A stretch of 14,500 nt of DNA from Okeania sp. (GCF_035285525.1 NZ_JAYKGW010000194.1:1-14500), one strand, 5' to 3'; shown: positions 1 to 14,500, numbered from the stretch's first letter. Program-made: numbers and translations. Notes: generated from the letters alone by a model not told the origin.

Positions 1-173
1 AGGGTGTGTTAGGCGCTAGCCGTAACGCACCAGTATTAATTCAAAAATCCCTAAAGTCGGGTAGGGTGTGTTAGGCGCTAGCCATAACGCACCAGTATTA
101 ATTCAAAAATCTCTAAAGTCGGGTAGGGTGTGTTAGGCGCTAGCCATAACGCACCAGTATTAATTCAAAAATC
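1..173. repeat. 62-bp tandem repeat, two full units plus a partial third (unit starts 1, 63, 125); the array is cut by the window edge
   Basis: Units AGGGTGTGTTAGGCGCTAGCC(G/A)TAACGCACCAGTATTAATTCAAAAATC(C/T)CTAAAGTCGGGT are almost identical. Each contains an imperfect hairpin GGTGTGTTA...TAACGCACC (9 bp including one T.G pair on the + strand). Confidence 0.9.
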
Positions 174-231
174 GCCTCTAGAACCCATTTGGTATTTATT
201 TTTTTATACATAAGCTTGCTGATGTAATATT

Positions 232-329
232 ATCAGGACTTACGCAAAGGCACTATATATATAGAGTTTCGGTCTATGACACTAGCGCTTTCACACCCTA
301 CCAATAGCGTTCATGGCTTTAGTCCTAAT
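232..329. repeat. MITE-like dispersed repeat, copy 1 (ATCAGGACTTA...TTAGTCCTAAT ends)
   Basis: About 85% identical to 590-685. The termini are short inverted repeats (ATCAGGACT / AGTCCT(A/G)AT). The interior carries CACACCCTAC, the reverse complement of half of the 62-bp-repeat hairpin core. Confidence 0.75.
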
Positions 330-2806: not shown

Positions 2807-3205
2807 CTATACTCCACGTTTTAAAGCAAGTTCTGCTTGTTTAAATTCTTGTTCTAAACGCTTCTTTAATTTTTCAGGTATAGGGCGGTTTGGATAAGAA
2901 CTATAATGTCCTGCTAAAGAATTTAAAGCAGTTCTCATTGTCGTAAATGATGGTAAAGTAGACACAGCAGGGTCTCGACGATAGCGAGAGGCATAGTCAT
3001 TTATTATTTGACGTGCTATTGCTTGAGCTTCACTTTTAGCTTCTGTCTTTTCTGGTAACTCAATCGCTGTTCTTAAACTATCTATTAGGTTTAATGTATC
3101 TTCTGAATAATTTCCAGTTAAAGTTGAAGAGTTATCAGAACAACCCATTAAACCAATAACACAAACTAAAACTAAGGCTAGTAGACGAGAAATCAAACGT
3201 TTCAT
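2807..3205 (-). CDS. psb27: Photosystem II assembly lipoprotein Psb27
   Basis: 132 aa with a lipoprotein signal and lipobox (LVCVIGLMG-C). Strong recognisable identity to Synechocystis Psb27 (slr1645) along the whole length: TGNYSEDTL, LRTAIELP, INDYASRYRR, FTTMRTALNSLAGHYSSY..RPIPEKLKKRLEQEF.QAE...RGV. ATG start at 3205. Confidence 0.93.
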   Translation of the reverse strand: MKRLISRLLALVLVCVIGLMGCSDNSSTLTGNYSEDTLNLIDSLRTAIELPEKTEAKSEAQAIARQIINDYASRYRRDPAVSTLPSFTTMRTALNSLAGHYSSYPNRPIPEKLKKRLEQEFKQAELALKRGV

Positions 3206-3556: not shown

Positions 3557-3678
3557 ATATCAAGTCCGGTTGAATAATTAGACTTTGGTAGAAGGAAGGC
3601 AGAAGCTTTTATGCCATTTCCACCTTGATTTTATACACGCACGATGCCCGGAAAATCCGATGCTACCGGACATGATAT
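3557..3678 (-). mobile_element. 122-bp MITE, copy 2, inverted relative to 348-476
   Basis: Its reverse complement aligns with 348-476 over the full length (~92% identity, 7-bp deletion). The TIRs are ATATCAAGTCCGG / CCGGACATGATAT. Confidence 0.85.
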
Positions 3679-3721
3679 AACTAATATCAGATAACTGTTA
3701 ATTTATACACTATCTGTAATT

Positions 3722-4190
3722 ACACCATCCCTGTAGGGGCGGGTCTCATCACTAAACTAACGACTCTTCACCTTAAACTACCTAGACCCGCCCCTCCTAC
3801 TACACCATCCCTGTAGGGGCGGGTCTCATCACTAAACTAAGAACTCTTCACCTTAAACTACCTAGACCCGCCCTTCCGACACCATCCCTGTAGGGGCAGG
3901 TCTCATCACTAAACTAAGAACTCTTCACCTTAAACTACCTAGACCCGCCCCTCCTACTACACCATCCCTGTAGGGGCAGGTCTCATCACTAAACTAAGAA
4001 CTCTTCACCTTAAACTACCTAGACCCGCCTTCCGACACCATCCCTGTAGGGGCAGGTCTCATCACTAAACTAACGACTCTTCACCTTAAACTACCTAGAC
4101 CCGCCCTTCCGACACCATCCCTGTAGGGGCAGGTCTCATCACTAAACTAACGACTCTTCACCTTAAACTACCTAGACCCGCCCTTCCTAC
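3722..4190. repeat. Tandem array of six 76-80-bp units, each with an 11-12-bp GC-rich inverted repeat (GGGGC(G/A)GGTCT ... AGACCCGCCCC) around a ~45-nt loop
   Basis: Unit starts (ACACCATCCCTGTAGGGG) are at 3722, 3802, 3879, 3959, 4035 and 4112. Three polymorphic sites (G/A in the 5' arm, CTAACGAC vs CTAAGAAC, junction CCCCTCCTACT vs CC(C)TTCCG) occur in mosaic combinations. All frames are closed by stop codons. Confidence 0.92.
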
Positions 4191-4196
4191 AGCAGA

Positions 4197-4215
4197 GGGT
4201 TTGGAGACCAAACCC
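4197..4215 (-). terminator. Stem-loop GGGTTTGG-AGA-CCAAACCC about 40 nt downstream of the S8 peptidase stop; possible terminator or processing hairpin
   Basis: An 8-bp perfect stem with a 3-nt loop and no U-tract. A near copy (GGTTGTGG-AGA-CCAAAACC, 3523-3541) lies on the other side of the MITE plus tandem-array block. Confidence 0.25.
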
Positions 4216-4254
4216 CTACCTCATTAAATTTTACTAATGCTAACGGATTTGATG

Positions 4255-7200
4255 TTACATTCCAGCTACATCCCAAACAGTAGGTACACTTCCTGGGTTA
4301 ACAGAACTGTTGCGAGTGCCGTTCTCATTCATCATCCAGATAGCGTTACTTCCATTTTCATTACGCCACAATATGTCTGCTACTCCATCGGCATTAAAAT
4401 CGTCTACTCCAACTACATCCCAAACAGTAGGTACACTTCCTGGGTTAACCGAACTGTTGCGAGTGCCGTTCTCATTCATCATCCAAATAGCGTTGCGTCC
4501 ATTTTCATTACGCCACAATATGTCTGCTACTCCATCGGCATTAAAATCAAAACGAACTGATTCAGTTTTTAGAGATAAGTTACCGAAATTAATCTCTCCA
4601 ATATTCTCACCATTAACTACTTCTACAGTGTGGAAAGGATCATCTTCTGAACTTGTTACTGTCACATCATCAATGTACCAGCCTTCAAATTCATTCAATG
4701 CTCTGTCTCCAGTATCAAACTCGAAGCTAATTTCGATTTGTTGACCGACATAGGAACTTAGGTCAAATTCAGCATTAGTCCAGCCTGTAGTAGGGTCTTT
4801 CAATTCTTCTGCATTAGAAGCAATGGGAACAAAATCACCACCATCTACTGAGACCAACACCTTAGCTACATCATACTCAGAACCTAAACCTTCTGTTTCT
4901 AAGAAGTAGTTAAAGGAAAGTTGAGCGCTGTCTAATTCACTTAAGTCAATAACTGGAGAAATAATTCGCCCTGCAGTATATCCGGCATCATAATTGCCAG
5001 TTTCTTCGACTCCATAATACATACTGTCTACACCACTATGACCGTTTTCACCTCCACGTCGGGTGGATAGATGCCATAAACCCTCAGTTGGTGCTCCGGT
5101 GTTGTCAACAGTGAAGCCGTCTAAGTTGGGATTCTCGTTATCACTGAAGTCTGCCTCAAAGATTACTTCCACTTGTTTGCTAGGATAAGTTTGCTTCCAT
5201 CCATCTTGCATGACTTCCGCAACTCTATAAGTTCCAATCTCAAGACCATCGAACTCATAGTAACCTTCTGCATCAGTGACAGTAGAATTTTCCCCTTCAT
5301 CGAGTTCGCCGTTTTCATTCTCATCTATATATATTGTCCAGCCTTCTAGTCCTACTTCATTATCGTCCCACTCACTGTTACCATCCAGATCATTCCACTT
5401 GTATCCAGATATGAAACCAGAGATTTCCCGGTTGCCGAAGTTAATATCAGTAACATTCTCACCAACTTCCAATTCTACAGTATGAGTTCCTAGTCCCCCT
5501 GGTTCCCCTGGTTCTCCTGGTTCTCCTACTTCCGAAATGGCGTTGAACGCATTCAAACGACGACCTGTTAATGTTTTTCCATCTAGTGCTGAAATCGGAT
5601 CGCCACTCTCCAGAATAATTTCCTTGACCTCTTGAGAACTCAACTCTGGATTTTCTGACCATACTAACGCTGCTACCCCTGCTACATGAGGAGTTGCCAT
5701 CGAAGTACCACTGTATGAAGCGTAACCGCCTCCCGGTATGCTGCTATAAATATTGGAACCAGGAGCACCCAAGTCTACAGATTTGGCTCCGATGTTCGAG
5801 AAACTAGATAAATTATCGTTGTGGTCTGTAGAAGCAACTGCTATGATGTTGTCTAAATCGTAGCTAGCTGGGTACTGAGGGTTAGTATCATTGTTACGGC
5901 CATAGTCATTACCTGCTGCTGCCACGAATAAAGAATCTGCTGCACCTGCTGCGGCGATCATATCATGCAATCCCTGAGAAAAGCCTCCGCCTCCCCAACT
6001 GTTGTTGGTTAGGTCTGCTCCCATCATCGTTGCATATTCTACTGCCAATACGGCGTCGAATAAATCACCAGAACCACCATCATTGAGGAACTTGATTGCC
6101 ATCAAATCAGCGTTCCAGTTTACCCCTACTATTCCTGTTCCATCATCACCTTTGGCTCCAATGGTTCCAGCCACATGAGTTCCGTGAGAGTGAATATCTA
6201 ATGGGTCGCCGTCATCATAGGCAAAGTCATAACCATAAACATCGTCTACATAGCCATTGTTGTCATCATCTACCCCGTTATCAGGTATTTCACCAGGATT
6301 AGTCCACATATTGTCTACTAAATCTGGGTGAGTGTAGTCGATACCTGTATCAATGACTCCCACTAATACGTTCTCACTTCCCGTTTGAATATCCCAAGCT
6401 TCCGGTGTATCAATATCTGCATCAGATGTTCCTCCAGTTTGCCCAGTGTTGTGCAGTCCCCATAGTTGACTGAAACTGGGGTCATTAGGAACTGTGGAAT
6501 CAACCGTAATAATGTAGTTAGGTTCGATGTATTCAAATGCAGAGTTGTTTTGGTTATTACTAATAAATTCCTCTACAGCCCCGGAAATTGACCACAGTTG
6601 AATATCTAGCTCTTCACTTTTGGTTGTCTTGATGGTGGTAGCTCCCAAGCTCTCTTGCAGGCTACTCAGAGCGCTAATTTCATAACCTTCACTAAGTTTG
6701 ACAATTACTTCTCCTGATGCAAATACTGCTTCTAAGGGGATTTCTGACCCTGGGTTTTCTTCAGTAGTCTCAGTATCGGACTGACTAGCCTCTAAGCTAT
6801 CCACAGATGAACTTGAGCGAACTGAATCCTCTTCTACCGTCGCACCACTAGATACAAATGGTCCGTATATTTCTGCATCTTCTGTAGATGAACTTGAGCG
6901 AACTGAATCCTCTTCTACTATGGCAGCAGCATCTGTGGCTTGATTATTTGGTTCTGAGGTATCCACAGATTCACTAGGCAAAGGTGTTGTGCCACCCTCG
7001 ACCATAGAAGAACCTTGATTACCAGTCTCAATGGTGATATTATCAAACTGATGGTATGGAGATTCTTGTAACCACTCTACAGCCACAACTTGGTTAAAGT
7101 CATCGTTGAAGACAAAAGTTTCAGGGTCAAAAGCATTGCCGTCTAAGGTAAAGGTCTGAGTTACTGTTCCTCCCCCTTCTAGTTCTCCGACAAATGTCAC

Positions 7201-8388: not shown

Positions 8389-8548
8389 AATAGTATCATC
8401 CTATGATCGCTACTTTGTTGACACCAATTTCATCCAGCTATTGCTACAAATCTTTACATCAAGTAAAATAAAATATGTGTAGGTTTTACTGTCAGGATTT
8501 TAATGTCTACGATAAACAATCATAATTGATTGTAATATGTTTTGCATA

Positions 8549-8577
8549 GGGGGGTGACACCCCTTATTTTGTTTTTT
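8549..8577 (+). terminator. Orphan intrinsic-terminator-like hairpin plus T-tract on the + strand
   Basis: GGGGGGT-GAC-ACCCCTT (5 G-C/A-T pairs plus 2 G.T) is directly followed by TTATTTTGTTTTTT. No + strand CDS lies upstream. Confidence 0.3.
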
Positions 8578-8811
8578 ACCCATCTGAATTATTTAGGAGC
8601 GATCGCATGGCCTTTTTTCTAGAAAAAACTGCATAGTTTTTCACCCTAAAAACTGATATATATTAATTGGGTGTAATAACATCACATCAAAAAAATTCCA
8701 GGTTCTTAGGCCAAATGTGGGTTTTAGATGTATCGTCCAATATAAAAACAGAAATTTATATCATACTTTCTTTTTTTGTCAAATTAAGGTAGAGAATAAT
8801 TGTATCTAACC

Positions 8812-8906
8812 GTAGGTTGGGTTGTTCCCGTTAGGGTTGCGTAGCATGGAACTGAAACCAAATAAACCTTTGCTATTGTTGGGTTTCGTTCCTCAACCCA
8901 ACCTAC
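8812..8906. repeat. 95-bp palindrome-ended element (12-bp perfect TIR GTAGGTTGGGTT / AACCCAACCTAC)
   Basis: The TIRs were read directly. It is related to 3343-3461 in its interior and to 2281-2311 at its termini. It lies downstream of recF. Confidence 0.75.
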
Positions 8907-8930
8907 ATTGTTCTACATTTTTCTCCCTCT

Positions 8931-8970
8931 TCCCTACTCCCTACTCCCTACTCCCTACTCCCTATTCCCT
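8931..8970. repeat. Heptamer (STRR-like) array, TCCCTAC x4, then TCCCTAT and a partial unit
   Basis: Perfect 7-nt periodicity read directly. The array runs into the recF stop codon (8969-8971). Confidence 0.9.
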
Positions 8971-10141
8971 AAAAATCAAAAAAATAACTAATCTCTCCTG
9001 AATGTACGGACAGAATTTGAGTATCCTGCAACCACTGACCATCAAAACACCCCAAATGAGTAGTAGTAATCAATGTTTGAAAGCGATCGCTAATCACCTC
9101 TAACAATTGATTTTGTCGATGCAAGTCTAATTCTGCTAAAACATCATCCAATAATAATAATGGCGGTTCCTCCACCACCTGTTCAATAAGTTGCAACTCT
9201 GCTAACTTCAAAGCTAAAACCAAAGTCCGCTGTTGTCCCTGGGAACCATATTGTCGTGCGGGAGTATCATTAATAGTAAAAGTTACATCATCCCGATGGG
9301 GACCAACTACCGTAGTTCCTTGATATTGTTCAGCGATCGCTCGTGCTTTAATTTTCTCTAAAAAAGCTTGACGTACTCCCTCCAAACTATCTTGTATAAT
9401 TAACTCTTTACTATCAACCGTTACATTTGCCAAATATTCCATCTGCAAAACTTCTTTACTACCACTAATAGCACGATGCCATTCACTTGCTAAGGGTGCT
9501 AACCTCTTTAAAACCCGTTCTCGTCGCCGAATCACTCGCGCTCCAGTAGTTGCCAACTGAGCATCCCACAAAGCTAACTCTTGAGCAGGAATAGAATACA
9601 ACGAACCCACACTTTCTGCTGCGATATTTTGCTGACGAATTTTCTTTAACAAAGCATTACGCTGACGAAGAACTTGATTATATTGTTGGAGAATGTGAGC
9701 ATATACAGGTTCCAGTTGCACCAAAAGTCGATCTAACCACTGACGACGAAATTCTGGTCCACCTCTAACTAAGTCTAAATCTAGACTAGAAAACTGCACT
9801 ACATTGAGAATGCTTAAAAAATCTAAATGGCGACGTAAATTTTCACTATTGACTACTACAGTACGTCTACCTTGACTCCGCAAAGTCAGAGTCAGGTCAA
9901 TATTTCCTACTTGTCTTTCTAAAGTTCCTTGGATTTGACCTGCTGTTTTCCCATCTAAGATTAAGTCGCGATCGCGAATCGCTCGGTGAGATTTGAGAGT
10001 AGAAAGTAATTCTACAGATTCTAGGAGATTAGATTTACCTTGAGCATTATCTCCCACCAAAATTGTTTTGGCAGCATTAAATTTAACTTGTTGGTCTCGA
10101 TAGTTCCGAAACTGTCGTAAATGTAAATGTCTCAGGTACAT
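8969..10141 (-). CDS. recF: DNA replication and repair protein RecF (390 aa)
   Basis: MYLRHLHLRQFRNY start, Walker A GDNAQGKSNLLE, ABC/SMC signature YGSQGQQRTLVLALKLAE, Walker B LLLLDDVLAELD. The ORF-track N-terminal 42 aa (…SLSSPSSLSSPSSPSSPSS) are translated CT-rich repeat, so I place the start at the ATG at 10139-10141. Confidence 0.93.
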   Translation of the reverse strand: MYLRHLHLRQFRNYRDQQVKFNAAKTILVGDNAQGKSNLLESVELLSTLKSHRAIRDRDLILDGKTAGQIQGTLERQVGNIDLTLTLRSQGRRTVVVNSENLRRHLDFLSILNVVQFSSLDLDLVRGGPEFRRQWLDRLLVQLEPVYAHILQQYNQVLRQRNALLKKIRQQNIAAESVGSLYSIPAQELALWDAQLATTGARVIRRRERVLKRLAPLASEWHRAISGSKEVLQMEYLANVTVDSKELIIQDSLEGVRQAFLEKIKARAIAEQYQGTTVVGPHRDDVTFTINDTPARQYGSQGQQRTLVLALKLAELQLIEQVVEEPPLLLLDDVLAELDLHRQNQLLEVISDRFQTLITTTHLGCFDGQWLQDTQILSVHSGEISYFFDF

Positions 10142-10145
10142 ATTG

Positions 10146-10221
10146 AAGGAAGAGGGGGAGGATGGGGAAGAGGGGGAAGACAAGGAAGAGGGGGAGGACA
10201 AGGAAGGGGGGAGGAGGAGGG
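10146..10221. repeat. Purine-rich (GGAAGAGGGGGAGGA-type) low-complexity tract immediately 5' of the recF start
   Basis: About 75 nt that are almost exclusively G/A on the + strand, with internal reiteration of GGAAGAGGGGGA(A/G)GA. It is CT-rich on the recF coding strand. Confidence 0.85.
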
Positions 10222-10445
10222 AGTAATGCCAATTATCAAAAGTATTGCTATACTTGGAAACTGGCAAAATTTCTTTTGTCCATAACCGAAGTTACCAGAT
10301 ATCAAGAATTTGCTCAAATAAATAGTATTTATAAATATAAAATCCAAATATAGCAAAGTTTATGGTAATTGGTATAAGAATTCTGTCTACATTCCTCACT
10401 GATAGTGTATTGAATTAGACACTTTTTTGATAACTGTAGACAGTA

Positions 10446-10520
10446 TTCTTCTTCCCCCTCCTCCCCATCTTCCGCACCTTCCCCATCTCCCCCTTTCAAA
10501 GGGGGGTAGGGGGGATTTCT
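10446..10520. repeat. Pyrimidine-rich tract (inverted counterpart of 10146-10221) ending in the palindrome CCCCCTTTCAAAGGGGGG
   Basis: The reverse complement of CTTCCCCCTCCTCCCCATCTTCC resembles the GGAAGAGGGGGAGGATGGGGAAG units at 10146-10221. It lies directly 3' of the 416-aa CDS on the minus strand. Confidence 0.8.
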
Positions 10521-10525
10521 TCTAC

Positions 10526-10816
10526 TCAACTCAACTGTACAACAACCTGCTCATTTAATAAGGTTTCATTTGTCAATAAATCTTCTACTGTTATTCTCAG
10601 AAACCTAGACTCATCTACCCTAAATAAAACTTTAATTTGATCGCTTCCTGGATTTCCGGGAGGATTCAACTGAGCAATACTACGACCTCCTTCTCGATTG
10701 TTTAAAGGTTGTACTGAAGTTTGTTCTCCAGATATTTTCCGAGTAATTAAGCGATCGCCATTAAAGTAAATTTCTGTACCCTCAGATTCAACTCCTAATT
10801 CTGCTAAAATTAACTC
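10526..10816. repeat. 291-bp duplicated 3' coding module, copy A (pairs with 12249-12539)
   Basis: About 10 substitutions over 291 nt. Similarity ends abruptly at about 10820. Confidence 0.92.
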
Positions 10817-11776
10817 TAAACTATGCTTAAGTTTGAGCAATTTTTTCTGTCTACTTATTAGCGGGAAATCTATCGTATTTGTTTCAAATTTTATTTGCTT
10901 CAATTTGTCTTTAATCTCTTCTAACTTAGATTGCCATTCTCTAAGTTTGATTAATCTGCTTTCCCATTCTTGGGTTTGTAATGATTGTACCGTTTTTATT
11001 CCCATTTTATCTTGCTCTGAGCTAATCAATTGCAACTTATTCCCATATAATTTCCATGTATGATAATTATTTATAAAATGAGCATCGTTGTCCTTTGGTA
11101 AATGAAACTCTTTTTTTAAGATTCCTGTTTCTCGATCTAGAGTTTCTTGAAGAAAGTCACCATAAGCTAGATTATTTTTTTGACAAAAAATATTTAATAT
11201 TTTATTAAATAAAATACTTCTATTTGTTCTTTCATATATATCAGGTAGATGATTGAATAAATGTGTTTTTAGTTCTTTAACTTTCTCTTTATCTTGAATT
11301 GCACGAGTTATTCTTTTATGTGTTGTTTTAAGTACATAGTTCTGATTAAAAATAGATGGTAAATTAATACCCAAAATATAAATTCGACTTTTTTCTAAGG
11401 CTAAACTGTTAATAAAATCAAAATACATTGAGATTACTTTCTCAGCAAAATCAATAAACTTTATATTTTCTTGCTTAACAACCAACCTGTAATAATATCC
11501 TAGATCGACATCTACTTGACCAAACTTTAAAATTAGTAAATCTAAATCTGGATACTCATAAATTTTTTGTCTGATTTGATCGGCAACCTTTAAGGTAGAT
11601 TCTCTCTTACCAAAACCTGTCATTGAAGCTGCCGGTATTTTATGTAAATGAATTTCTATGTCTTTGTGGCTTTGGCGACGACCAAAAAATTGAGAATGGG
11701 AGTCTCCAAAGATAATATATTTTTTATTTCTATTTAGGTTTTCTCCAGAACTAGGTATTAAACGATAATTCAACAT
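10526..11776 (-). CDS. Chimeric 416-aa protein: AT-rich N-terminal hydrolase-like region (GDSH motif; SGNH/GDSL-like assignment is tentative), a K/E/L-rich predicted coiled coil, and a C-terminal 96 aa copied from the Hsp70 SBD-beta
   Basis: An intact ORF with an ATG at 11776. The N-proximal YIIFGDSHSQFFG resembles SGNH block I, but the later blocks are not convincingly canonical. The heptad-like stretch is QEWESRLIKLREWQSKLEEIKDKLKQIK. The last 96 aa are 90/96 identical to the C-terminus of the 12249-13841 product. Confidence 0.7.
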   Translation of the reverse strand: MLNYRLIPSSGENLNRNKKYIIFGDSHSQFFGRRQSHKDIEIHLHKIPAASMTGFGKRESTLKVADQIRQKIYEYPDLDLLILKFGQVDVDLGYYYRLVVKQENIKFIDFAEKVISMYFDFINSLALEKSRIYILGINLPSIFNQNYVLKTTHKRITRAIQDKEKVKELKTHLFNHLPDIYERTNRSILFNKILNIFCQKNNLAYGDFLQETLDRETGILKKEFHLPKDNDAHFINNYHTWKLYGNKLQLISSEQDKMGIKTVQSLQTQEWESRLIKLREWQSKLEEIKDKLKQIKFETNTIDFPLISRQKKLLKLKHSLELILAELGVESEGTEIYFNGDRLITRKISGEQTSVQPLNNREGGRSIAQLNPPGNPGSDQIKVLFRVDESRFLRITVEDLLTNETLLNEQVVVQLS

Positions 11777-11798
11777 ACTGATACCATCAATAAATTTG

Positions 11799-12226
11799 CT
11801 AACTTAACTGTACAACAACCTGCTCATTTAATAAAGTTTTATTTGTTAATAAATCCTCCATTAAAGCTCCCCTTACTTTATATAAGTTTCTATATCTTTG
11901 TGGCTTTGGCGAGCCAAAAATTTAGAATTGGAGTCTCCAAAGATCACATATTTTTTATTTCTATTTAGGTTTTCCCCAGAACTAGATAATAAAGGATAAT
12001 TAAGGATAATTAGGGTTTGCTGATTTCTCGGGAACCGTAAAAGTCTTTTTCAGGAGATGGGTTGATGGGAAGGTGGGGAGTAATTTCTTGGCCCAACTCT
12101 CGCCCAAAATTCGCTCCTTTTTCAGTATGAGTAGCTCAAACCAGCGCACTTTTTTACACCATAAAAATTTTCAAGTCTTTACTGATCAAGGTTTTTATAT
12201 TTACTCAACAAACCCTAATGAAACAT
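11799..12226 (-). pseudogene. Decayed, internally deleted and MITE-disrupted copy of the 416-aa gene type
   Basis: It has the same 22-nt junction and ATG after the Hsp70-like stop (ATG 12224-12226). Homology to codons ~3-52 of the 416-aa gene is retained (about 11860-12009, with frame disruption). That segment is joined directly to the last ~60 nt of the shared tail (11799-11858), which has an internal TAA. The central ~345 codons are missing. Confidence 0.8.
12010..12218. mobile_element. 209-bp MITE-like insertion with 14-bp TIRs (TTAGGGTTTGCTGA / TTAGGGTTTGTTGA in reverse complement)
   Basis: The TIRs match at 13/14. The element interrupts the pseudogene between ATGTT and AATTATCC, which are contiguous (ATGTTGAATTATCG) in the intact paralogue. 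Confidence 0.7.
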
Positions 12227-12248
12227 ACTGATGCCATCAATAAATTTG

Positions 12249-12539
12249 CTAACTTAACTGTACAACAACCTGCTCATTTAACAAGGTTTCATTTGTCAAT
12301 AAATCTTCTACTGTTATTCTCAGAAACCTAGACTCATCTACCCTAAATAAAACTTTAATTCGATCGCTTCCTGGATTTCCGGGAGGATTCAACTGAGCAA
12401 TACTACGACCTCCTTCTCGATCGTTTAAAGGTTGTACTGAAGTTTGTTCTCCAGATATTTTCCGAGTAATTAAGCGATCGCCATCAAAGTAAACTTCTGT
12501 ACCTCCAGATTCAACTCCTAATTCTCCTAAGATTAATTC
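12249..12539. repeat. 291-bp duplicated 3' coding module, copy B (pairs with 10526-10816)
   Basis: See copy A. A third, truncated copy of the last ~60 nt is at 11799-11858. Confidence 0.92.
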
Positions 12540-13841
12540 TATACTTGTTTGACTATTTACGGAAGCACCTAAAACTAATTCTACAGGATTAGTCATGGGA
12601 TATGGTTGACCAGATTTTATTAAGGGATGCCAACTATGAGCATTTTTCTTTCTATCCCAATACCGAATACCATAACTGTGATACAAAAAGTCTTTAATTT
12701 CTACTCCTTGAGTTAATTGTAAGGCTCCTTGAGAAATTGCTTCAAAAGGTTTTTCACAACGAATTTTTTTTTCATCAAAATATTCTTTTACCCACCTCTG
12801 CAATGCGGGGATTTGAACTGTTCCTCCTACTAATAAAACTGCATCAATTTCTGATAGTTCTATTCCTTGTCTTTTGGCTTGTTGTAAAACCCGATTCATG
12901 GAATTATCAAGACTGGTAAAAAATCCATTTTCTTTGAGAATTTCTTCAAAGTTATTTCGCTCTAATTCTAATTCATAACTTTCTAAATTTTCATCATCAA
13001 AAAAAACTTCTGTTGCTTGTTGTTGCCAAGACAATTGAATCTTTAATTTTTCTGCCAAACGAGTTGTTAAAGGAGTCTTTTCAATACCTTGATTTTTCAC
13101 AAAATAATCCACTAACCAATTATCAATATCCGAACCTCCTAAATTCTGTCCTGCCTTGGCTAAAACTCTGGCAATTTTTGGCTTTTGATTTGAACTTTTA
13201 CCAAAGGATTTTTCACCCCATTTCAGAATAAAACCTAAAGGTTGTTTTTGCACCGAATTATCTAACCTTACTAAAGATAAATCTAAAGTTCCTCCACCAA
13301 AATCAACTACTAATAAAATTTCTGCATCTTTCATTCCATAACCTAAAGCTGCGGCAGTAGGTTCATCAATCATTTGTACTTGGGGAACTTCTAAAGACTG
13401 AGAAACTTCTCCTAACCAATTACGATAAGTTTCAAAACTATCAACTGGAACCGTAAAAATTAAAGATTCTACTGGCAAAGGAACATTTCTAATACCAGCG
13501 ACAACTTGTTCTAAAAATAATTTTCCTACTTGTTCAAAAGAAATAATTTGACTGTCTATTTCTGGTAAAAATCCTTGAATATTTGTACCAATACCTCTTT
13601 TAAAATTACGAAAAAATCGAGAATCTGTATTAACATCGAAACCTTTATCTCTAACTTGTTGACCTATTATTGCTTTATTTTCAGCAGCATTTTCTACATA
13701 AACTAAGCTAGGTATTAGAGGTGGATTTTGCCCAGAAATAATTGATAAGTTTGGTAATTTAATAGTTTCTGGTTGTTGAGTTGTTTGATTCCAACGGGAA
13801 ATTACGGTGTTACTGGTTCCGAAGTCTATAGCTATAGTCAT
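12249..13841 (-). CDS. Short, lidless Hsp70/DnaK-family ATPase (530 aa)
   Basis: Actin-fold ATPase motifs: AIDFGTSNT (phosphate 1), VVDFGGGTLDLSLV (phosphate 2), LLVGGTVQIPALQ (adenosine). A DnaK-like interdomain linker IKDFLYHSYGI follows, then an SBD-beta-like end (IKVLFRVDESRFLRITVEDLLTNE, compare DnaK IEVTFDIDANGIL.V.A.D..TG.E). There is no alpha-helical lid. ATG at 13841. Confidence 0.88.
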   Translation of the reverse strand: MTIAIDFGTSNTVISRWNQTTQQPETIKLPNLSIISGQNPPLIPSLVYVENAAENKAIIGQQVRDKGFDVNTDSRFFRNFKRGIGTNIQGFLPEIDSQIISFEQVGKLFLEQVVAGIRNVPLPVESLIFTVPVDSFETYRNWLGEVSQSLEVPQVQMIDEPTAAALGYGMKDAEILLVVDFGGGTLDLSLVRLDNSVQKQPLGFILKWGEKSFGKSSNQKPKIARVLAKAGQNLGGSDIDNWLVDYFVKNQGIEKTPLTTRLAEKLKIQLSWQQQATEVFFDDENLESYELELERNNFEEILKENGFFTSLDNSMNRVLQQAKRQGIELSEIDAVLLVGGTVQIPALQRWVKEYFDEKKIRCEKPFEAISQGALQLTQGVEIKDFLYHSYGIRYWDRKKNAHSWHPLIKSGQPYPMTNPVELVLGASVNSQTSIELILGELGVESGGTEVYFDGDRLITRKISGEQTSVQPLNDREGGRSIAQLNPPGNPGSDRIKVLFRVDESRFLRITVEDLLTNETLLNEQVVVQLS

Positions 13842-13990
13842 TTAGTTATTTAAGTTAAATATTTTATATTTTCAAATATTATAATAGATTGGTTGACAAA
13901 TCTAAACTAGATGTGATATTTTAATCATAATGGGAAAGGTGCGCTCATATGTACTAAAACTAGATTTTGCCAAAAAAAACCATATTTTCC
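13821..13990. repeat. Promoter, 5'UTR and first 21 coding nt of the Hsp70-like gene (master copy of a reiterated ~170-bp segment)
   Basis: Aligns with 14097-14270 (~90% identity) and, for its first ~50 nt, with 14295-14344. It contains the palindromic ATTATAAT (13878-13885), which gives a TATAAT on both strands. Confidence 0.85.
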
Positions 13991-14063
13991 TGGTCAAGGA
14001 AAATCTTAATAACTAATAACTGATTTTTCACGCCATCTGATTTTTCAAGCCATCCGTAAAAGC

Positions 14064-14096
14064 TAATAACTGATAACTGATAACTGACAACTGATA
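14064..14096. repeat. Heptamer (STRR-like) array TAATAAC TGATAAC TGATAAC TGACAAC TGATA
   Basis: 7-nt periodicity read directly. It lies immediately beside stub copy 2. A short AGCTAATAACTGATA version precedes stub copy 3. Confidence 0.85.
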
Positions 14097-14270
14097 GAAG
14101 TCTATAGCTATAGTTATTTAGTAATTCCAAGTTAAATATTTTATATTTTCAAATATTATAATAGATTGGTTGACAAATACAAACTGGATGTGATGTTTTT
14201 AATCATAATGGGGAAGGTGCGCTCATATATACTAAAAGTGCGATTTTGCCAAACAAACATATTTCTTTTT
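14097..14270. repeat. Stub copy 2 of the Hsp70-like 5' region (start codon mutated, ATG to ATA)
   Basis: On the minus strand, CTAAATAACTATAGCTATAGACTTC compares with the master CTAAATGACTATAGCTATAGACTTC. Homology to the gene stops after 21 coding nt. Confidence 0.85.
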
Positions 14271-14294
14271 ACCACGAAAAGCTAATAACTGATA

Positions 14295-14344
14295 CAAGTT
14301 TATAGGTATAGTCATTTAGTTACTTAAGTTGAATATTTTATATA
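14295..14344. repeat. Stub copy 3 of the Hsp70-like 5' region (partial, more diverged)
   Basis: On the minus strand, TATATAAAATATTCAACTTAAGTAACTAAATGACTATACCTATAAACTTG aligns with the master 5'UTR plus ATGACTATAGCTATAGACTTC. Confidence 0.75.
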
Positions 14345-14500
14345 GAAATTTCTACAGCCCGTGAAATACATTCACAATTCCCCTAAATCCTCTTTTGAGA
14401 AGGTGATTTTTTGTTTACTCCTCCCTTACCAAGAGAAGCAGGGGGGAAACACCATACCTCATAGATTAAAGAACTACTAACTATATTTTCAGAATTATAT

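Follow-up and report, generated by a model that had tools for sequence, protein, structure and literature searches.

How does an Hsp70-like gene come to share its 3' end with an otherwise unrelated gene that lies just behind it? The question is raised by a 14.5-kb contig from a metagenome-assembled genome (MAG) of Okeania sp., the whole of which was analysed and is referred to here as the window. The relevant genes all lie on its minus strand. One encodes a conserved cyanobacterial 530-aa Hsp70-like protein without a lid (12249..13841), and another, a 416-aa open reading frame (ORF; 10526..11776), joins a hydrolase-like head to a copy of the C-terminal part of the same Hsp70-like protein. A preliminary description of this DNA had proposed either a modular locus, in which the shared tail docks an enzyme onto the Hsp70-like partner, or a young chimera that might be a one-off recombination scar. 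We argue here, with a probability of about three in four, that the locus is a recombination product: a join with homology on one side only, similar to homology-facilitated illegitimate recombination (HFIR), would have been followed by unequal crossover and gene conversion, leaving a chimera that is in frame by chance.

Two near-identical gene ends and a repeated spacer

The shared sequence is a direct repeat of 295 nt (window 10528-10822 and 12251-12545) that is 96% identical, and its copies are the 3' ends of the two ORFs, encoding the last 96 aa of each. We refer to the copy that belongs to the Hsp70-like gene, comprising the last 96 codons and the stop codon, as T1 (12249..12545; repeat D2), and to the displaced copy that continues the head ORF in frame as T3 (10526..10822). 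The preliminary description of this repeat was accurate in most respects. Ninety of the 96 residues are identical and six codons differ non-synonymously (G/A, G/E, V/I, D/N, D/N and R/Q), the differing codons amounting to 10 of the 96 rather than to about nine; the stop codons of the two tails are also unlike (TAG vs TGA). The similarity ends as abruptly as had been claimed, collapsing within ~10 codons upstream of ~10825 and 12548, and the head is indeed the AT-richer region, with 28% GC compared with 32.5% in the body of the Hsp70-like gene.

Direct reading of the sequence shows that a 22-nt spacer, CAAATTTATTGATGG[C/T]ATCAGT followed by ATG, occurs twice, first between the stop codon of the Hsp70-like gene and the next ATG (12227..12248) and again at 11777..11798. 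The spacer and the head gene downstream of it are conserved in the related loci L001-L004 and L008. That two gene starts follow the same 22 nt had been noted before; the spacer is certainly present twice, but the first ATG opens a wrecked third copy and no gene.

Related loci carry the head gene without the second tail

Six related assemblies, representing four or five distinct lineages, have the Hsp70-like gene directly followed by a head gene that lacks the second tail; the order Hsp70-like gene, short spacer and tail-less head gene is seen in L001/L002, L003, L004 and L087. The head is intact in L004, where it is 303 aa long and ends in ...KLKQIH. In L001/L002 it has a stop within the motif (FGD*HS), and it has an in-frame stop in L003 and in L087, the latter being the sole locus with a head that was added by the metagenome scan. 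L006 and L007 retain no more of the head than codons 1-81, only a trace of it is left in L005, and there is none in L009 and L011. Judged from these sequences, the head gene appears to be decaying across the clade, by stops in L001/L002, L003, L008 and L087 and by deletions elsewhere.

Comparison of these loci locates the junction precisely. Window positions 11860-10820 are colinear with L002 1937-2961, the homology ends exactly where the flank of the head gene meets the tail, and past this position L001/L002 carry unrelated sequence. In Okeania hirsuta (L008), positions 8534-9800 are colinear with window 11858-10528, and the junction is identical apart from a 60-nt indel. The head of O. hirsuta is a pseudogene, with an in-frame stop (FG*VD) and the motif changed to GDSYS, and its second tail is in another frame. 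Among the orthologous loci, which the preliminary description had proposed to compare, five relatives have a tail-less head gene, and O. hirsuta has the junction, out of frame.

What follows the junction in O. hirsuta is also informative. Its T3 together with ~340 nt of flank (9521-10138) is 88.7% identical to the gene end and flank of the head-less locus L009 (8312-8956), and L011 is colinear as well. By this colinearity, the second tail is identified as the 3' end that was resident in the Hsp70-like gene, still attached to its native flank, and the segment made up of tail, spacer, head and flank behaves as an insertion that carried in its own replacement tail. The clade contains cargo-type (L001/L004) and empty-type haplotypes (L009/L011), together with recombinants of the kind seen in L008 and in the window.

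An independent case in Microcoleus

The same arrangement was found with a different cargo in Microcoleus. In L033 and L037, the Hsp70-like gene is followed by a gene for a SnoaL-like protein of 218 aa and then by a second, 156-nt copy of the gene end. The displaced copy and its flank are colinear with genomes that have an empty site (e.g. L014, L018, L022, L027 and L038), and in genomes with the cargo only (L016, L043, L044 and L047) the divergence falls exactly at the junction. The gene-resident copy of L033 is 97.4% identical to that of the cargo-type L043, and the displaced copy is 96-97% identical to the empty-type L022, L018 and L027. Such split affinities are predicted for a recombinant of two haplotypes. 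A fixed-coordinate scan of informative sites for the left crossover revealed a mosaic within the gene only, upstream indels having confounded the scan. Short ORFs that hold the displaced Microcoleus end are also present in the database (P0119-P0127, with up to 19 members each), and they show this to be a common arrangement in nature.

An older junction and signs of relaxed constraint on the head

T1 and T3 of the window are 96% identical, compared with 82% for T3 of the window and T3 of O. hirsuta and 88% for T1 and T3 of O. hirsuta. At 14 sites, T1 and T3 of the window have a common state that is absent from the five closest relatives. This pattern indicates that the junction is old and that the two copies were homogenised later, either by gene conversion or by unequal exchange. 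Of the earlier suggestion of a young chimera or a one-off scar, the scar is what remains: the junction is shared with O. hirsuta and so is not a one-off, and the 96% identity reflects later homogenisation rather than youth. Since homogenisation, all six derived amino acid changes (6/6) have occurred in T3 and none in T1, as judged against the outgroups, and for the T3 branch a ratio of non-synonymous to synonymous rates (omega) of 0.1, as is typical of the Hsp70-like gene, is rejected (p = 0.01).

Between the window and O. hirsuta, synonymous divergence (dS) is 0.12 in the head (10889-11776) and 0.56 in the Hsp70-like gene (12252-13841), a difference of ~4.5x, which indicates that the cassette was shared much more recently than the host gene and was exchanged laterally between Okeania lineages. 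With L001 used to polarise the substitutions in the head, 8 synonymous and 30 non-synonymous changes fall on the window branch, whose omega is ~0.9 since the split from the O. hirsuta pseudogene; on the branch of the pseudogene the counts are 8 and 33. On the window branch, values of omega <=0.35 are rejected (p = 0.01) and neutrality fits. This near-neutral pattern suggests that constraint on the gene is relaxed and that the 416-aa ORF is open because no stop codon has arisen in it so far.

A wrecked middle copy between the two genes

Between the two 22-nt spacers lies a head::tail pseudogene (11799..12226), recognised from repeats D3, D8 and I9, from short ORFs and from the sequence itself. 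It consists of the spacer, ATGTT, an insertion of ~215 nt, ~45 head codons (~5-52), the last 20 codons of the tail (11799-11861) and the second spacer. As it ends in tail codons, its parent unit was already of the head::tail type. The tail fragment is followed by a stop codon of the T1 type and the spacer, as expected from an unequal crossover between T3 and T1; a by-eye comparison further shows one internal T3-like site in the wrecked copy (nt 258), which varies among outgroups too and gives weak support. The insertion, at about 11997-12221 within the stretch 11996-12232, has imperfect inverted ends of 28 nt that are 75% complementary, and its sole other match in the fetched loci is in L009 (71%). 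It may resemble a miniature inverted-repeat transposable element (MITE), the 71% match to L009 being insufficient to call a MITE family.

The 416-aa ORF and its head

In an AlphaFold2 (AF2) model, the 416-aa ORF is laid out as an SGNH fold (aa 18-235), a helix (aa 238-301), a low-confidence linker (aa 301-333) and the tail. The SGNH/GDSL-hydrolase-fold domain (11072..11725) is predicted with a confidence score (pLDDT) mostly >80. Foldseek matched it to sialate O-acetylesterases and GDSL lipases (6xpg, 4hf7, 3p94 and 7pzg; E 2e-5 to 1e-4, TMt 0.55-0.65), so that the hydrolase-like character attributed to the head in the preliminary description is supported at the level of the fold. The block I nucleophile motif, FGDSHS (aa 23-28), is conserved in homologues P0002, P0007, P0008 and P0009, and an alignment shows a conserved D-x-H-type stretch (DNDAHF, or DNDPHF in relatives). 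The modelled flavodoxin-like fold and the N-proximal FGDSHS are what the head shares with SGNH/GDSL hydrolases. Unlike them, it has no match to Pfam or NCBIfam models at E <=0.01, nor to PDB sequences at E <=1, and it has an additional C-terminal helix of ~60 residues (10874..11065), the proteins of relatives ending at about aa 296-303. On the basis of the model, the head is predicted to be an SGNH-fold accessory protein resembling esterases or acyl-hydrolases.

Among 1.84 billion cluster representatives we found 423 homologues of the head, the best 150 of which are mainly stand-alone proteins of ~230-260 aa. Head and tail were matched together in none of these 150. The cluster of the 416-aa protein itself (P0001) has this contig as its only member. 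Between head and tail, codons 296-319 of the ORF (KFETNTIDFPLISRQKKLLKLKHS; 10820..10891) correspond to the former 3' flank of the head gene, as indicated by tblastn and by colinearity with L002; in L001/L002 this stretch is non-coding and has two in-frame stops in the tblastn alignment. The pLDDT is <50 at aa 301-322, and 60-85 in the strands of the tail. The Hsp70-like and head genes are probably co-transcribed, a putative but reasonable call; no terminator-like site was found in 10200-14500, and no Rfam family in the window.

The 530-aa Hsp70-like protein

An Hsp70 nucleotide-binding domain (NBD) is clearly present: the match to Pfam PF00012 (E 3.9e-30) exceeds the gathering score and extends to ~aa 374, and in a phmmer search with the whole protein the NBDs of DnaK and BiP in PDB match aa ~94-374 (E 1e-21 to 1e-15). 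The C-terminal 170 aa (aa 361-530) are modelled by AF2 as a beta-sandwich (pLDDT 80), and the top 20 matches of this domain in a Foldseek search of PDB are all Hsp70/DnaK substrate-binding domains (SBDs; E ~1e-4, TM ~0.5), consistent with the earlier assignment of this half of the protein to the beta subdomain of the SBD (SBD-beta). A hidden Markov model of the domain had no match among PDB sequences and the whole-protein phmmer search reached the NBD only, so the relationship to the SBD is visible at the fold level only. The shared tail sets in where the fourth predicted strand of the sandwich ends and so lacks the first four strands, in line with the previous observation that the tail is limited to the distal strands.

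The protein resembles the Hsp70/DnaK family in its actin-like ATPase NBD with Pfam HSP70 matches and, by modelled fold, in the DnaK-like beta-sandwich that follows. It differs in that it ends directly after the sandwich, without an alpha-helical lid, and in having an extra hairpin in the sandwich (TEVYFDGDRLITRK). NCBIfam scores for DnaK/HscA are 85-96 bits against cut-offs of 620-1019, which places it outside canonical DnaK and HscA. It is well conserved: Okeania and Nostoc orthologues are ~70% identical, the genome collection contains 535 relatives, omega against relatives is ~0.09-0.12, indicating strong purifying selection, and the mean column identity of the tail across cyanobacteria is 82%.

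We considered whether the tail exists as an independent gene. Many "tail-only" proteins of 115 aa in the database begin at the conserved Met of PYPM. The two that were checked, both on long contigs (L085 3757-5348 and L086 3757-5348), are pieces of Hsp70-like genes broken by frameshifts, probably assembly errors or pseudogenes, and we rejected this candidate. In L003, L085 and L086, the Hsp70-like gene has a YkuD-domain gene and an aldolase gene (PF01081) downstream of it, both on the other strand. Their recurrence in distant cyanobacteria suggests an older conserved neighbourhood that was lost from the Okeania clade.

A proposed order of events

The comparisons show the anatomy of the locus, the shared junction, the colinearity with empty sites, the haplotype affinities in Microcoleus and the relaxed pattern of substitution; from them we infer both an order of events and a mechanism. 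In the Okeania/Dapis clade, a conserved single-copy Hsp70-like gene is followed by a small SGNH-fold accessory gene. A segment containing the Hsp70-like gene, the spacer, the accessory gene and ~70 nt of its 3' flank could then have been joined to a chromosome that had no accessory gene, with the Hsp70-like gene serving as the homologous anchor and the other end joining illegitimately, at a point where the resident gene had 96 codons still to run. The Hsp70-like gene would have remained intact because it retained the incoming tail, T1, and the resident tail, T3, would have persisted downstream of the accessory gene, where it forms a direct repeat and keeps its own downstream flank. In this genome, a later unequal recombination between tails may have produced the second head::tail unit, which a deletion and a small insertion have since disrupted, and gene conversion would have homogenised the tail copies to 96% identity. 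With no stop codon in the accessory gene before T3, and with the frame matched by chance, the 416-aa ORF would have resulted. The in-frame fusion is most simply seen as a chance outcome that requires a one-in-three frame and 24 stop-free codons.

HFIR is described for Acinetobacter, Streptococcus pneumoniae and Pseudomonas stutzeri in passages of two publications (PMC5361080, PMC3240628). It is characterised by homology that anchors one side of the exchange and a join without homology at the opposite side, and both are seen here: colinearity with head-bearing haplotypes extends across the Hsp70-like gene, spacer and head and stops at the junction, one end of the exchange lying in the conserved anchor gene and the other join having little or no microhomology. 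Both parental haplotypes and the mixed recombinant occur in the Okeania clade as well as in Microcoleus, so that donor-type, recipient-type and recombinant forms are seen in two genera. The present case differs in that the process is deduced from comparative genomics alone, and in that the outcome is a duplication, not a deletion, of 96 codons (47 codons and 12 nt in Microcoleus), because the illegitimate join falls before the point at which the anchor gene ends.

The closest described analogue is the 3'-end displacement at Rhs and type VI secretion system (T6SS) loci. A passage of PMC5361080, referring to Jackson et al. 2009, describes such displacement, with "orphan" 3' fragments, for Rhs, CdiA and T6SS effector loci. 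By analogy, the incoming module would provide a new 3' end, and the resident end would be pushed downstream and persist as an orphan. At those loci, variable toxin ends are accompanied by immunity genes and diversity is selected, whereas here the ends are homologous and near-identical (96%), no toxin/immunity logic is visible and the cargo is decaying.

Several points weigh against our reconstruction. The substitution counts are small, with 6 non-synonymous against ~3 synonymous changes in the tail, and the contrast between T3 and T1, taken alone, is not significant (Fisher p = 0.18). The 416-aa ORF is intact, GDSHS is kept and the 24 codons of the former flank are free of stops, which would allow translation and some function. 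In the window, T3 is followed by G-rich repeats and then recF, a flank unlike that after T3 of O. hirsuta, and the reconstruction therefore requires either one more rearrangement or a separate transfer. As to the mechanism, HFIR after DNA uptake, a deletion between transient gene copies and Campbell-type insertion are all candidates; the microhomology at the junction is minimal or ambiguous, and natural transformation in these organisms is not documented here.

Alternative explanations

It is conceivable that the locus arose purely locally, by intrachromosomal tandem duplication or deletion in one lineage followed by vertical inheritance, losses and gene conversion. The locus is prone to duplication, as seen from the wrecked copy, the tandem units at the 5' end and the partial 5' copies in L005 and L009, and unequal crossover between the tails has certainly taken part. 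A tandem duplication, however, predicts a spacer and a head after the second tail, where the flank of head-less genomes is observed; together with the different haplotype affinities of the two L033 copies and the low dS of the head relative to the Hsp70-like gene, this makes a purely local origin unlikely. Precisely empty as well as occupied sites, and a cargo flanked by direct repeats of the target 3' end in two genera, would also be produced by a site-specific integrative cassette that targets the Hsp70-like 3' end, with the tails as attL and attR, like the islands at the 3' ends of tRNA or protein genes. We give this idea very little credence, since each insert of 1.2-1.7 kb has just one cargo ORF (SGNH-like or SnoaL-like) and no integrase or transposase in or beside it, the duplicated length (295 vs 156 nt) and the position of the junction both differ between the two genera, and the cargo-only haplotypes run on into unrelated sequence, which would be expected of a donor chromosome rather than of the end of an element.

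The modular fusion proposed previously would have the Hsp70-derived half-sandwich dock the hydrolase onto the Hsp70-like protein, or compete with that protein, for example by beta-strand complementation. That head and tail form one open reading frame in which GDSHS is intact, that the tail strands are predicted at a pLDDT of 60-85 and that the genes are tightly spaced with no terminator-like site between them would all suit such a function. The comparative evidence does not: the head is tail-less in five relatives, the tail of O. hirsuta is out of frame with a pseudogene head, the linker is former non-coding flank of very low pLDDT and the tail lacks the first four strands of its sandwich. Given in addition the six replacements in the head-attached copy, the omega of ~0.9 in the head and the want of a second example among the best 150 homologues, we consider the docking tail very improbable. 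As the contig comes from a MAG and the protein was seen once, strain variants could also have been mis-joined across the repeat. The junction joins unique head flank to the tail, outside any repeat, and its presence in the independent assembly of O. hirsuta PAB10Feb10-1 excludes misassembly, so that the probability of an artefact is negligible. We therefore retain the recombination product as the explanation of the locus.

A bolder idea is that the 3' end of the Hsp70-like gene is a recurrent landing pad in filamentous cyanobacteria, a recombinase-free cassette system in which host recombination moves small accessory genes. We regard this as speculative and rather unlikely. Were it true, each transfer would supply a new gene end of its own while the resident one stayed on as a direct repeat, and this repeat could later allow the cargo to be excised precisely or amplified; in its boldest version, the in-frame head::tail product would be made and would interfere with, or dock to, the Hsp70-like protein.

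We would like to point out that a domain shared between neighbouring genes can be a displaced gene end, and that an intact ORF may already evolve like a pseudogene. The loci are also a clean case from nature, found in two genera of cyanobacteria, in which a conserved core gene serves to anchor the exchange of accessory genes by homology. That donor-type, recipient-type and recombinant haplotypes can all still be observed in both genera could help studies of gene flux and of the repeat- and pseudogene-rich genomes of the Okeania/Trichodesmium group.

Other repeats in the window

The upstream region of the Hsp70-like gene is present in tandem copies (13822..14343; repeats D9, D11 and D13, and alignment), spaced by 276 and 198 nt and each ending in the first 21 nt of the gene. 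A promoter scan placed a promoter-like site at 13878-13906, within this region. Similar partial 5' copies are found in L005 (3397-3995), L009 (6064-7021), L010 and L001/L002. The upstream partial copy of Dapis L005 spans gene positions -11..251, and a 37-nt remnant in L001/L002 (L001 6021-6057) has the same end position, 251. These tandem and partial copies suggest that the 5' end of the Hsp70-like gene is also a hotspot of rearrangement.

The ORF call of recF has a spurious Ser/Pro-rich N-terminal extension, which stems from G-rich 9-nt repeats (GGGGAAGAG-like; 10137-10228), and an inverted copy is located immediately downstream of the 416-aa ORF at 10450-10493. Heptamers of a similar kind, CTCCCTA, are repeated at 8923-8971 and also in L003.

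Further away, a 3.1-kb segment with a GHL10-like gene (690-2255) and a Psb27 gene (2807-3205) is enclosed by inverted repeats (340-476 and 3557-3686; ~140 nt in total, 90-96% complementary). Six tandem units of ~77-80 nt (3714-4267) lie just downstream of a 1377-aa ORF, which, from motifs seen by eye, we presume may be of the subtilisin type. A 141-nt duplication that is 96% identical (4261-4548) repeats the C-terminal FNADGVADILWRNENG... module of the same ORF. At the end of the contig (1-186) there are three tandem units of 62 nt, the other two being 97% and 79% identical to the first.

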